A stretch of 55,336 nt of DNA, from the IMG/VR virus record IMGVR_UViG_2541047870_000005, one strand, 5' to 3'. The first letter of the stretch is position 1. Each line of letters begins with the position of its first letter. Both the position numbers and the translations under genes were made by a program. The notes below the pieces were generated by a model. The model saw nothing but the letters and a program-made list of their open reading frames with translations, was not told the DNA's origin and ran no database searches. Source of the stretch: a virus (lineage: Duplodnaviria > Heunggongvirae > Uroviricota > Caudoviricetes). This document shows positions 31,258 through 46,428 of this stretch, piece by piece.

Positions 31258-31599
31258 TTAATTCGGCATGGTTAGCCGTCTGGGAAATAAGCTCACCACT
31301 GCACGAAAATGATTCATTGCTTTAATCAACTCCCGCTTTTCGTCAGTGGTCAGCTCATTAATGCTGATGCTATGACGTTCAGCTGGAATTTTTGCCATAA
31401 AGAATATGGCAGCCAGTGCCCGTTTATTTTGTTCGCTATTAATATCCCGTGAATCACGCATATCTTTAATAAACCGCTCAAGCTCTGACTCAATATTCAG
31501 GCCAAAAACTTTCGCCCTTAACTCCGCAATGTGATTAAGTCCATTCAGGCGTTCACCGGGGCTTAATGGAACAGTCGCCGCAGTGCCTTCAATAGCCAT
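31258..31599 (-). CDS. Hypothetical early-region protein (113 aa)
   Basis: ORF in the early operon. Confidence 0.5.
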   Translation of the reverse strand: MAIEGTAATVPLSPGERLNGLNHIAELRAKVFGLNIESELERFIKDMRDSRDINSEQNKRALAAIFFMAKIPAERHSISINELTTDEKRELIKAMNHFRAVVSLFPRRLTMPN

Positions 31600-31680
31600 T
31601 TATGCATCCCACAACACATCTACTAAAAAATTTTTGATATGATCCATTACCAACATATTGATAGCTAGAAGGAATCATCA

Positions 31681-31929
31681 ATGTTGAACCCGGTTGAAAG
31701 AGAGCGTATAGAGCAACTTGAAAACGAGATCTCCAGTCTTCGCGATGAGGTTGCTGTTCAACGAATTCTTGTTTCAGGTCTGATCCACTCCTTATTTCGA
31801 ACTGACTCAGCAAATCAATCAGCATTTTTTGAGCTCCTCCGCGAAGAATTAAACAAACTTCCTTTAGGTTCGGTTAAACAACAAGAATTCACTCATCTGA
31901 TACAGACACTGATAGATCGTTACCGATAA
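31681..31929 (+). CDS. Hypothetical coiled-coil protein (82 aa) on the strand opposite to the early operon
   Basis: SD-like aggaa upstream of the ATG; competes with minus-strand ORF 31589-31825. Confidence 0.35.
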   Translation: MLNPVERERIEQLENEISSLRDEVAVQRILVSGLIHSLFRTDSANQSAFFELLREELNKLPLGSVKQQEFTHLIQTLIDRYR

Positions 31930-32144
31930 ATATTTCGCCGATAACGTTCAAGAGGTGATGTCTTTATACGCATCACTTCTTGTACTTTTTCACCACGTAT
32001 AAAGGTTCCATCCTTTAGCGTGAAAAAGTAGCTACCATCGCCCGACAACGACGGATAACAACAGAGCAAATCATCTTCAGGTACTGAATAATTCTCCCCT
32101 CTGTAACGAAAGTGATAAACCACTTTATTTTCTGCCGCATACAT
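31920..32144 (-). CDS. Hypothetical early-region protein (74 aa)
   Basis: ORF downstream of cII; overlapping alternative frame 32015-32341 not excluded. Confidence 0.35.
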   Translation of the reverse strand: MYAAENKVVYHFRYRGENYSVPEDDLLCCYPSLSGDGSYFFTLKDGTFIRGEKVQEVMRIKTSPLERYRRNIYR

Positions 32145-32318
32145 TTGGACTTTCTCCGTTTCCTCGTGGTCAATTCAGACAGCAATTCATCTTGTGAACG
32201 GCACGGATGCCAGCGTTTACCATCCTCACCCATGATCCAGCCGTGACCGTAGTGCATTGCCGGGCTTTGTTTTACCAGCAGCGATGCAAATGATGGTTCT
32301 TTCGTCAGCATAAGCACC

Positions 32319-32828
32319 TCACAGCAAACCGAATGAAGCACCGAGGCCAGTCACGGTATCAACTGCACTCGCCATCGCAGGATTAGCCTGTAAACGGGCC
32401 TGCAATGAAACAGCCGCCAGCGCCATCAGTCGTGTTACAGAGTTAATGCTGCTGATAGCATCACGACGACCGGCACAGGTTTTTACATCGCCAGATACCG
32501 CACCTGCAGCAACACGCCCGATCTCTGCGGTTGCACTCATGACGTAATGTGGCAGTTTCTCTTTTGCCACCTCATTAATCGGTACACATGGCAGACAATG
32601 AATCTGAGCCAGAAAGCCATCGACCAGCGTTGAATCTTCAGTCAGATCGGTAAGCAACCAGATTTCTGACGGCGTGAGCTGATGTGATTGTTCCGGGTTA
32701 AGCTTGTTACGCAGCGTCTGGACGTTCATTCCCGCGCGTTCTGCCAGCTTCGCCATGTTGTGACGCAGTGCGAAAGCCCGACAGGCTTCATCAAAATGCG
32801 GATGTTTGGAAATCTTGTAATCAAACAT
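32319..32828 (-). CDS. cII: CII-like establishment regulator (186 type)
   Basis: 169-aa ORF downstream of apl, divergent from cI, same size as 186 CII; HTH-like NVQTLRNKLN. Confidence 0.65.
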   Translation of the reverse strand: MFDYKISKHPHFDEACRAFALRHNMAKLAERAGMNVQTLRNKLNPEQSHQLTPSEIWLLTDLTEDSTLVDGFLAQIHCLPCVPINEVAKEKLPHYVMSATAEIGRVAAGAVSGDVKTCAGRRDAISSINSVTRLMALAAVSLQARLQANPAMASAVDTVTGLGASFGLL

Positions 32829-32860: not shown

Positions 32861-33103
32861 TTACTTACCAACAATGACGCGGAAGTTGGAATGACCGAGG
32901 GATTCACGGACCTGATCAGTTTTGTACATCAGATAACGCAGGCTTACGCGGCCTTTGTTTTTTTCTTTCTTGACCATGTACTTAGCGAGTTGGCCATGGT
33001 GAATTTTTTGGTAAACAGACCCACGGGAAATACCTTCCCATTCAGCGAATTCAGCAGGCGTAGCCATCTCTTTTGGTACACGAATTGAAATATCTGTGCT
33101 CAT
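32861..33103 (-). CDS. apl: Apl/Cox-like excisionase-repressor
   Basis: 80-aa ORF, first gene of the rightward-type operon facing cI; HTH-like AEWEGISRGSVYQKI. Confidence 0.65.
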   Translation of the reverse strand: MSTDISIRVPKEMATPAEFAEWEGISRGSVYQKIHHGQLAKYMVKKEKNKGRVSLRYLMYKTDQVRESLGHSNFRVIVGK

Positions 33104-33210
33104 AGTGCAGTATCCTTAGATTTAAGTTAGTTTTATCTCGTTTTAGCTCACTTTTCGGGATTCCCCTTGCGGGATAATCGCGATACTACGATCACTTTAA
33201 GTGGTCGTCA
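33104..33210. promoter_or_regulatory. Lysis-lysogeny switch region (divergent promoters/operators between apl and cI)
   Basis: 107-bp intergenic region between divergent regulator genes; positional inference. Confidence 0.45.
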
Positions 33211-33855
33211 ATGGAGTATTTGATGATCAACATTCAGGCAGGTCCCAATACGGGAGGTAGAGAGGCGATCGAAAGATTGCTTAAGGCATATGGATTCAGC
33301 ACCAAACAAGCACTAGCTGACCATTTAAAAATTTCAAAAAGCACTATGGCAAACAGAAACTTACGAGATAGCTTTCCTGCTGAGTGGGTCATCCAGTGTG
33401 CACTTGAAACAGGGGTTTCGCTGCTATGGCTAGCCACAGGCCAGGGTGAAATGTTCACTTCAGAAGATCGAGAAAAAAATCCCGTAAACGAGTCAAACGT
33501 CACGCTTCGACCACTTTCCAAAATCGTTGCCCCCAGCATTAAGCAAGCCGAATTGAAGAATGGGGAGTTGAATAACGAAGGGGAAGTCTTGCTTGATAGC
33601 AGCTTACTGGACAGTGAGCCCGGCAATTCATTGTTTATAAAAACGTCTACTGACTGCTTTGTAGTGGATATATCTGTCAAACAGGTTAGCAATGGTTACT
33701 GGCTTGTCGATATTGATGGGGTGAAAAGCATCGTCAAGATTGCCCGAATACCAGGCAACAGAATTGTTGTTCACCAGGACGACTCATCCTTTGAGTGTTC
33801 TGTTGATGATGTGGAAGTTGTCGGGCGAGCCATTAAAGTAATCAAGAGTATTTAG
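33211..33855 (+). CDS. cI: CI-type immunity repressor (186-like, N-terminal HTH plus C-terminal domain)
   Basis: 214-aa ORF upstream of int, HTH motif STKQALADHLKISKSTMANR; true start may be the Met at 33223. Confidence 0.75.
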   Translation: MEYLMINIQAGPNTGGREAIERLLKAYGFSTKQALADHLKISKSTMANRNLRDSFPAEWVIQCALETGVSLLWLATGQGEMFTSEDREKNPVNESNVTLRPLSKIVAPSIKQAELKNGELNNEGEVLLDSSLLDSEPGNSLFIKTSTDCFVVDISVKQVSNGYWLVDIDGVKSIVKIARIPGNRIVVHQDDSSFECSVDDVEVVGRAIKVIKSI

Positions 33856-33857
33856 TC

Positions 33858-34877
33858 ATGACCATCAGGAAACAGCCGAACGGAAAATGGTTGTGTGAGT
33901 GCTACCCTAACGGGCGGGACGGCAAGCGCGTGCGCAAGCAATTTGCGACGAAAGGCGAAGCCGTAGCATTCGAAAACTTCACCATGGATGAAGTAAACAA
34001 AAAACCATGGCTGGGGGAAAAGGAAGATCGGCGGCATCTGTCAGAAGTGATAGAGCAATGGCACTCACTATACGGGCAGACGCTCGCAGACCCCAAACGC
34101 CTGATGGCGAAACTTAGAATTATCTGTAATGGCCTGGGCGACCCTATCGCCTCAGAGCTGACCGCCGGAGATTTTACGAAATACCGTGAAGCGCGATTAA
34201 AAGGTGAAGTGCGAAATGAAGATGGCGCGCTTATGTCGCCAGTTAAGCCCCGAACGGTAAACCTCGAACAACGCAACCTATCATCAGTTTTTGGGACTCT
34301 GAAAAAACTGGGCCACTGGTCAGCCCCTAACCCGCTCGCCGGTCTGCCAACATTCAAAATCGCAGAGGGTGAACTGGCATTCCTGACCCCAGAAGAAATT
34401 AAACGCCTGCTGGATGCCTGCGCGGATTCTCAAAGCCCCAGCCTGCTGATGATTGCAAAAATATGCCTAGCTACTGGTGCGCGGTGGAGTGAAGCAGAAA
34501 ACCTGCAGGGCCATCAGTTATCAAAATACCGCATCACTTATACCAAGACGAAGGGCAAGAAAAACCGTACCGTGCCGATATCTCAGGATCTGTATGACGA
34601 ACTCCCCAAGAACAGAGGGAAGTTATTCACCCCATGCAGAAAAGCTTTTGAGCGTGCAGTTAAACGAGCTGGTATCGACTTGCCAGAGGGACAATGTACC
34701 CACGTCTTGCGCCATACATTCGCCAGTTACTTTATGATGAATGGAGGGAATATTCTTGTACTAAGAGATATTTTAGGCCATTCAGATATAAAAATGACTA
34801 TGGTCTATTCTCATTTTTCACCTGAGCATCTTGAAGATGCTGTAACAAAAAACCCTTTATCATCACTAGCGATTTAA
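33858..34877 (+). CDS. int: Tyrosine integrase (P2/186 Int family)
   Basis: 339-aa ORF after cI; C-terminal catalytic-region motifs (HVLRHTFAS, LGHSDIKMTMVYSH). Confidence 0.85.
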   Translation: MTIRKQPNGKWLCECYPNGRDGKRVRKQFATKGEAVAFENFTMDEVNKKPWLGEKEDRRHLSEVIEQWHSLYGQTLADPKRLMAKLRIICNGLGDPIASELTAGDFTKYREARLKGEVRNEDGALMSPVKPRTVNLEQRNLSSVFGTLKKLGHWSAPNPLAGLPTFKIAEGELAFLTPEEIKRLLDACADSQSPSLLMIAKICLATGARWSEAENLQGHQLSKYRITYTKTKGKKNRTVPISQDLYDELPKNRGKLFTPCRKAFERAVKRAGIDLPEGQCTHVLRHTFASYFMMNGGNILVLRDILGHSDIKMTMVYSHFSPEHLEDAVTKNPLSSLAI

Positions 34878-45877: not shown

Positions 45878-46428
45878 TGATGCCTGAACGCATTAATCCC
45901 CATTTTTCTGGCTTGCATCCTGCAGTCATTTCCAGGTATAGTTTTTCCGCTGCCGCAAAATCGGCAGCCGGAATTGGCGTTCCGCGAAACTCAATGGCGA
46001 CACCAGACGCGCCAAGCGTCTTTTTTTTCGTCGAAGCTCTGGCACACCCATTTTCCAGGCTGTGGTGTTTATGCGTACACCGTGGTTCTTTCGAGATAAT
46101 GGCAGTCCGGGCGGGGCAGCCTTCGGGCTGGCCGGTATCCATTGAGGCCGGTTACGCCAACCCCGTTCGGGCTGCCACCAGTGAAATTGGCGTTTCCGGT
46201 GGTAGCAATAACCGCTACTCAATGGAGGCTGCCATCATGGCTACAACCCTCACCCCGTTTTACCCGCAATATGTCTTTGTGCTTGCCGCAATCCGCCGTG
46301 CTGACACTCAACCCCGCATCTGTATGCTTCGCACCGTGGCCTGCGATGAGCGCTTTGCACGCCTTTCGCTGGTCCGTGATTATGTGCTCTCCCTTTCTGC
46401 ACGGCTGCCTGCCGGGGAGGTGATGTGA
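45877..46428 (+). CDS. Hypothetical protein (start uncertain), translationally coupled to downstream genes
   Basis: GC-rich ORF whose stop overlaps the next start (ATGA); several overlapping alternative ORFs on both strands make the 5' end unreliable. Confidence 0.35.

Follow-up and report, generated by a model that had tools for sequence, protein, structure and literature searches.

The window, that is, the whole stretch of 55,336 nucleotides that we analysed, carries between 29.8 and 34.9 kb the control and early region of a 186-like (Peduoviridae) prophage, whose genes and features are collected in Table 1. The sequence-only reading had placed ORF82 in a prophage early region that is otherwise on the minus strand, and this is what the gene content shows: cII, fil and the DUF5347 gene, together with the further early genes (those for DUF2732, a TraR/DksA zinc-finger protein, Dam and the replication endonuclease), are all minus-strand genes, and ORF82 lies on the strand opposite this early lytic (pR-type) operon and shares its direction with cI and int. 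The gene order in the window is cII-fil-orf74-ORF82-DUF5347, and the start codon and ribosome-binding site of the DUF5347 gene adjoin the region upstream of the ORF82 promoter.

Table 1. Features of the ORF82 locus and of the surrounding prophage control and early region (window coordinates).
Feature	Position	Strand	Remarks
ORF82	31681-31929	+	ATG start; 82 aa; acidic product (pI 5.3)
ORF82 ribosome-binding site	31668-31673	+	GAAGGA, 7 nt 5' of the ATG
Putative ORF82 promoter	31635-31643	+	Extended -10 element TGATATGAT; TG at 31635-31636, hexamer TATGAT at 31638-31643
Terminator-like hairpin	31949-31992	+	Stem-loop 31949-31982 (13-pair stem, 8-nt loop), followed by TACTTTTTCA
ORF82 cassette (promoter and ORF)	31600-31938		~0.34 kb; missing from close phage relatives
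Competing ORF (ORF78)	31589-31825	-	78 aa; not a gene, frame broken in relatives
orf74	31920-32144	-	74 aa; phrog_4312; early lytic operon; convergent partner of ORF82
DUF5347 gene	31258-31599	-	PF17282 (E 1.8e-33); next after the cassette in the lytic direction
fil ORF	32015-32311	-	PF10893, N-terminal part only
cII	32319-32828	-	PF06892
Apl/Cox-like gene	32861-33103	-	Early lytic operon
cI	33211-33855	+	
int	33858-34877	+	

An open frame of 82 codons means little by itself in this region, since ORFs of this size are common there by chance (38 ORFs of at least 30 aa lie in 4 kb); what raises ORF82 above chance is the conservation of its frame. Among five diverged lineages with 68-74% nucleotide identity (about 70%), the plus frame of ORF82 contains no stop codon, and each of the other five frames contains between 2 and 10 stops in every sequence compared. 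Substitutions at codon positions 1, 2 and 3 number 190, 130 and 420, respectively, over these five lineages, and pN/pS is 0.25; synonymous sites are nearly saturated (pS 0.73). The same plus frame is kept in at least nine lineages and in 21 viral contigs. The competing minus-strand ORF78, which the sequence-only reading had correctly seen to overlap ORF82, is interrupted by two to four stops in each relative and has a pN/pS of 1.63; it has no Pfam match and was left uncalled by PGAP. The low pN/pS (0.36) of the mirror frame (-1) of ORF82 arises only because the third positions of the two frames fall together; this frame contains three to five stops.

The sequence-only reading had allowed that only the minus frame might be conserved in relatives; we found the opposite, the plus frame being kept and the minus frame broken in all of them. 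An explanation in which ORF82 is spurious, and either ORF78 or no gene at all is the true feature, could appeal to the frequency of ORFs of such size in the region and to the lack of a Pfam or NCBIfam family for ORF82, but with the minus frame interrupted everywhere and the plus frame conserved it retains hardly any probability, and the frame comparison effectively refutes it. We regard ORF82 as almost certainly a genuine protein-coding gene under purifying selection, which settles the ambiguity of strand: of the two overlapping ORFs, only the one on the plus strand is a real gene. The ribosome-binding site (Table 1), rightly described as plausible at the outset, is replaced at the corresponding place in relatives by GGGGAT, GAGGAT or GGGAGA. 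The earlier reading had overlooked that the 3' end of ORF82 overlaps by 10 nt (31920-31929) a second minus-strand gene, the real one, orf74.

RefSeq, UniProt and PHROGs already contain ORF82, uncharacterised, and its recognition here is a confirmation and not a surprise. It is identical to RefSeq WP_000934004.1 (hypothetical protein; UniProt A0A1Y2ZLQ3), and its residues 1-82 align with positions 1-82 of the 82-position profile of phrog_26925 (function unknown; E 1.6e-57). PGAP calls the gene in identical E. coli prophages as well as in diverged prophages; for example, the version annotated by PGAP in E. coli E7476 is 70% identical to ORF82. The exact protein occurs on at least 1000 contigs, and homologues in Lelliottia, Klebsiella and metagenomic contigs, which share 65-71% amino acid identity with it, are each 82 aa long and keep the place and orientation of the gene. 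All 21 IMG/VR viral contigs have an ORF82 of 82 codons, and the sole changes among the E. coli-type variants on these contigs are I10L, V24L and F39Y, which are conservative.

The family is small. A profile search of 1.84 billion representative proteins returned only 15 clusters, the full-length ones being 79-86 aa long, and a second profile search returned 23 clusters at 90% identity, whose organism-named members come from Lelliottia, Klebsiella, Pseudescherichia, Pantoea and Pectobacterium, in addition to an Escherichia-type cluster. ORF82 has no match in Pfam, NCBIfam or PADLOC, and the PADLOC-DB HMMs, compared with ORF82, orf74 and DUF5347, gave no family at E <= 1. By tblastn against 50,697 phage records we obtained only chance matches to mycobacteriophage tail proteins (E >= 0.05), and no phage isolate in this collection carries ORF82; the GTDB representative genomes, scanned with ORF82 family patterns, yielded no confirmed relative. 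As far as these sequence searches reach, the ORF82 family is confined to 186-like prophages of Enterobacterales. We found no paper that names WP_000934004, and a single paper that mentions DUF5347 in passing.

The promoter and coding sequence of ORF82 together form an accessory cassette, inserted between the adjacent core genes orf74 and DUF5347 as a moron would be. Escherichia phage vB_EcoM-813R9 and Klebsiella phage 4LV2017 are 94-95% identical to the window in the flanks, which match in two pieces: about 31600 to 31938 is missing from both, and the phage matches begin only at window position 31939. In the alignment these phage isolates (L001 and L002), which have orf74 and lack ORF82, show a clean gap at the cassette, with the orf74 stop codon about 16 nt from the DUF5347 start. 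Other relatives, ST437-OXA245phi4.2 among them, have neither orf74 nor ORF82, and there fil overlaps DUF5347. The cassette is present in 66 of 5426 complete E. coli genomes, and a 551-nt query that also spans orf74 matches 595 of the same genomes, about 530 of them without the ORF82 cassette. The association between the two genes is therefore one-sided, orf74 being far commoner without ORF82 (in these roughly 530 E. coli genomes, and in L001 and L002). Among the strains that carry the cassette are strain 504237 and KO11FL (NC_017660, 4123581-4123921), a derivative of E. coli W and a common and convenient host in which ORF82 could be tested. Two assemblies labelled 'DH5alpha' (CP026085 and CM135829) contain the cassette at 99.4% identity; it is unexpected in a K-12 strain, so these records suggest mislabelled strains.

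The sequence-only reading had described the product as a coiled coil, and structure prediction agrees. A heptad pattern runs through residues 10-38 (I10, L13, I17, L20, V24, V31, L34 and L38), and the AlphaFold2 model (mean pLDDT 78) has a long helix at residues 4-40, followed by helices at 43-58 and 63-81, so that ORF82 is predicted to consist of three helices, the N-terminal one a coiled coil. In all lineages the protein is acidic (pI 4.8-5.7), and no signal peptide or membrane segment was found in its sequence. Foldseek found nothing similar to the model in PDB or BFVD at E <= 0.001.

The convergent partner, orf74, belongs, like ORF82, to a PHROG family without assigned function (phrog_4312); it is a small early gene that is widespread in 186-like phages, one cluster having 484 members. 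Its product contains the invariant motif CYPSxSGDGSYFF and is confidently predicted to fold into a small five-strand beta domain with a C-terminal helix; no Pfam, NCBIfam or PADLOC match was found for it, nor any structural (fold) match. The gene is annotated in some records and left unannotated in others, and some truncated copies are named 'regulator' by NCBI, on a basis that is not visible. The annotation of fil, which overlaps it, varies as well: PGAP describes the 98-aa fil ORF as 'Fil family protein' in one genome and as 'pseudogene, missing C-terminus' in an identical one. The Fil domain corresponds to the first ~54 codons of this ORF (32150-32311), and the remainder is an out-of-frame tail over orf74; the frame of the tail is unconstrained (pN/pS 1.46), whereas the orf74 frame is under purifying selection (0.29). 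We considered whether Fil and orf74 could make one protein, by programmed frameshift or by fusion, and rejected this, the rare fused forms (P0055 and P0058) being deletion chimeras and the tail showing no constraint. In the Klebsiella-type locus L008, fil (at about 4590) has an in-frame stop within the Fil domain (…LLVK*SPG…) with orf74 and ORF82 intact, indicating that fil is dispensable or decaying there.

In all the lineages that we examined (Escherichia, Klebsiella, Lelliottia, Pantoea, Pectobacterium and the 21 viral contigs), ORF82 lies tail-to-tail with orf74, the two ends falling within -10 to +7 nt of each other. The genes are adjacent and convergent in nine of nine diverged lineages, including Pantoea, Pectobacterium and L023, and this holds in different gene orders: the order is cII-orf74-ORF82-fil-DUF5347 in Pantoea (L015 and L016) and in L023, in which fil can be recognised, and the orf74-ORF82 pair comes directly after cII in Pectobacterium (L017 and L018) and in L021. 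Over nine lineages the pairwise identities of ORF82 and of Orf74 are correlated (r = 0.92), and both proteins evolve faster (58-76% identity) than those of the flanking genes cII and DUF5347 (73-91%). This convergent pairing, a comparative observation, appears to be undescribed so far, and its constancy hints at a functional or regulatory tie between the two genes; linkage alone can explain both the constant adjacency and the correlated divergence.

The only ORF82 homologue without an intact orf74 was found in a decayed 186-like remnant in Pantoea (L019 and L020, 3000-5500), in which ORF83, the ORF82 homologue, is intact, and cII, orf74, fil, DUF5347 and DUF2732 are truncated; with about 99% identity between them, L019 and L020 count as one data point, not two. 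The remnant adjoins a retron Ec48-like reverse-transcriptase pair and another reverse transcriptase.

Upstream of ORF82 we identified a putative extended -10 promoter (Table 1), preceded by an A/T-rich tract. The pattern TGnTAnnnT is found 44-46 nt before the ORF82 start codon in 6 of 10 diverged lineages (the window, L007, L008, L012, L014 and L023) and in all 21 IMG/VR loci, and in more distant members CATAAT or TATGAT lies about as far from the start; apart from this element, the intergenic sequence before ORF82 has diverged and is poorly conserved. There is no recognisable -35 element, and a strict scan for the two-hexamer consensus reports no promoter. Transcription would start near 31650. 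No LexA-box-like sequence (CTG-N10-CAG) was seen by eye in the promoter, and we found neither repeats linking the pR/pL region with the ORF82 region nor an operator shared by the pR/pL region and the ORF82 promoter; for example, the palindrome ATCACTTTAAGTGGT (33191-33205) has no copy near ORF82.

Downstream, 20 nt past the ORF82 stop codon and within the 3' coding end of orf74, lies a hairpin followed by a T-run, which is the sole terminator-like site between 31300 and 32400 (folding energy -21.5 kcal/mol, z = -4.5). Across 10 sequences 88.5% of the stem cells are paired, and one pair shows GC<->AU covariation; in Orf74 these substitutions alter the amino acid on each arm (Met/Thr to Ile/Ile in Pantoea), so that the stem is maintained by paired non-synonymous changes. 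Several relatives have a weak T-run. L001 and L002, both without ORF82, have the hairpin as well, so it did not evolve only as the terminator of ORF82; it belongs to the 3' end of orf74, and ORF82 may simply make use of it. A second, perfect 11-nt inverted repeat (31983-31993 with 32020-32030) uses the T-run of the first hairpin, so that alternative structures are possible.

With a putative promoter of its own and a hairpin behind it, ORF82 probably has a self-transcribed, moron-like architecture. A phage moron, as Hendrix and colleagues use the term, is an added gene that brings its own promoter and terminator, lies between core genes and is expressed from the prophage. ORF82 resembles such a gene in being accessory, lying between tightly packed operon genes, and having a putative -10 element of its own and a T-run hairpin downstream; it differs in lying antisense within the early lytic operon rather than in the late region, in being coupled to orf74, and in that its expression in a lysogen is something we infer. 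The suggestion of the sequence-only reading, that ORF82, if real, would be a small, independently regulated moron, is supported: the accessory cassette, the extended -10 element and the hairpin all fit. Independent transcription is what the sequence suggests, and the gene is not free-standing, being always tail-to-tail with orf74.

The account that we prefer, tentatively and at something near an even balance, is that ORF82 is a lysogen-expressed, moron-like gene linked to Orf74. ORF82 would be transcribed from its own sigma-70 extended -10 promoter, with transcription ending at the T-run hairpin inside orf74, and would be made in the lysogen as long as pR remains repressed. The pR transcript has to cross the cassette in the antisense direction before it arrives at DUF5347 and the replication genes; after induction, this convergent transcription would occlude the ORF82 promoter, and the early transcript would pair with the ORF82 mRNA, to which it is fully complementary. 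ORF82 would thereby be shut down, which would make it a product of the lysogenic phase. The acidic, coiled-coil, three-helix protein would bind another protein, the likeliest target being Orf74, and might in this way buffer the lysogen against leaky or incoming Orf74. That ORF82 acts by protein binding, with Orf74 as its most likely target, is our best guess, and one that could easily prove wrong.

A possible alternative, in our view rather doubtful, is that ORF82 is a free-standing moron, expressed in the lysogen and acting on the host or on other phages (in superinfection exclusion, defence or fitness) with no tie to orf74, behind which it would lie as the result of one old insertion. The promoter-gene-terminator layout and the patchy occurrence of the cassette among near-identical prophages are what such a gene would show, and orf74 is commonly found without ORF82; moreover, in the Pantoea remnant ORF83 is intact with orf74, cII, fil and DUF5347 broken, which fits a role independent of orf74 better. 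ORF82 also evolves fast in comparison with the core early genes, as genes in an arms race often do. Set against this, ORF82 was found solely tail-to-tail with orf74, down to 27% identity and in other gene orders too, it has no match in PADLOC, and it has neither signal peptide nor membrane segment, unlike many exclusion proteins.

A stronger form of the tie to Orf74 would be a convergent module in which orf74 encodes an early host-takeover or toxic protein and ORF82 a coiled-coil antidote that is switched off on induction. If so, the module would act as a safety catch against leaky lytic expression, or would exclude related superinfecting phages. We consider this unlikely. We know of no toxicity of Orf74, and orf74 is common without ORF82, so that no antidote is required for carrying it; both points also count against the link to Orf74 in the account that we prefer. 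The pair does resemble a type II toxin-antitoxin system in consisting of two small, fast-evolving and co-inherited neighbours, one of them acidic and helical. It differs in that ORF82 and orf74 converge and are not co-transcribed, and in that the putative 'toxin' gene, orf74, is common without its 'antidote' (about 530 genomes, and L001 and L002); no toxin-antitoxin or defence domain was found in ORF82 or Orf74 with Pfam, NCBIfam or PADLOC. We therefore rejected a type II toxin-antitoxin pair, the genes not being bicistronic, orf74 occurring alone, and a toxin or antitoxin domain being absent from both.

It is also conceivable that the cassette acts in cis or through its RNA, with convergent transcription and antisense RNA damping leaky pR read-through into DUF5347 and the replication genes and the peptide being secondary. 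Immediately upstream of DUF5347, the ORF82 promoter is directed against the early operon; the ORF82 mRNA would be fully complementary to the early polycistronic transcript and would overlap the 3' end of orf74, and the equivalent position in phage 186, after dhr, is occupied by the regulatory terminator tR1. An antisense device, however, needs no protein constraint, and ORF82 shows a pN/pS of 0.25, a length held at 79-86 aa and only conservative substitutions; its synonymous sites diverge freely (pS 0.73), and Rfam has no match at the locus. These points make a primary role in cis improbable. They also led us to reject a non-coding cis-antisense RNA or a known Rfam family, both being ruled out by the constraint at the protein level together with the lack of an Rfam match.

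Phage lambda has in OOP a short non-coding antisense RNA, and in phage 186 pR and pL are an example of interference between convergent promoters. ORF82 is similar to both in that its putative promoter opposes the early transcript and that the overlap falls at the 3' end of an early gene; it is different from OOP in encoding a protein under purifying selection, and interference at ORF82 is a possibility suggested by the sequence.

The gene order in phage 186 (NC_001317) is cII-fil-dhr-tR1-DUF2732, and dhr encodes an inhibitor of host replication. In the window orf74 occupies the dhr slot, with cII and fil before it and DUF2732 and the replication genes after it, and it overlaps the 3' end of fil as dhr does; the segment of 186 differs in having no opposite-strand gene. 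We compared the two proteins and rejected Orf74 as a homologue of 186 Dhr, there being no BLASTP alignment and an hhalign probability of 0.3%. The lysis-lysogeny region of 186-type phages can thus carry, at the dhr-tR1 control point, an antisense small gene that is probably expressed in the lysogen; a classic genetic switch would gain a new level of control if Orf74 or early transcription is modulated by ORF82. As an annotated hypothetical protein that offers no hint of its function, ORF82 is of modest immediate importance.

Related prophages carry differing cargo between cI and int or adjoining cI (L021, 4985-7199; L008, 6127-7578; L006/L007, 1-8; L005, 5028-5552). This cargo includes an AAA_15/AAA_21 ATPase with a DUF4435 protein (a PARIS-like pair), a KAP NTPase and another AAA-family ATPase, and the region adjoining cI looks like a hotspot of defence genes in these prophages. 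An SMC_N/OLD-like TOPRIM ATPase lies at the far (replication-gene) edge in L006/L007. Elsewhere in the window, about 11 kb beyond the prophage integrase, two Rfam families match above their gathering scores, isrK (45949-46026, plus strand, 76.7 bits) and C4 antisense RNA (46095-46182, plus strand, 84.6 bits), which suggests a second phage-derived immunity region in the window.
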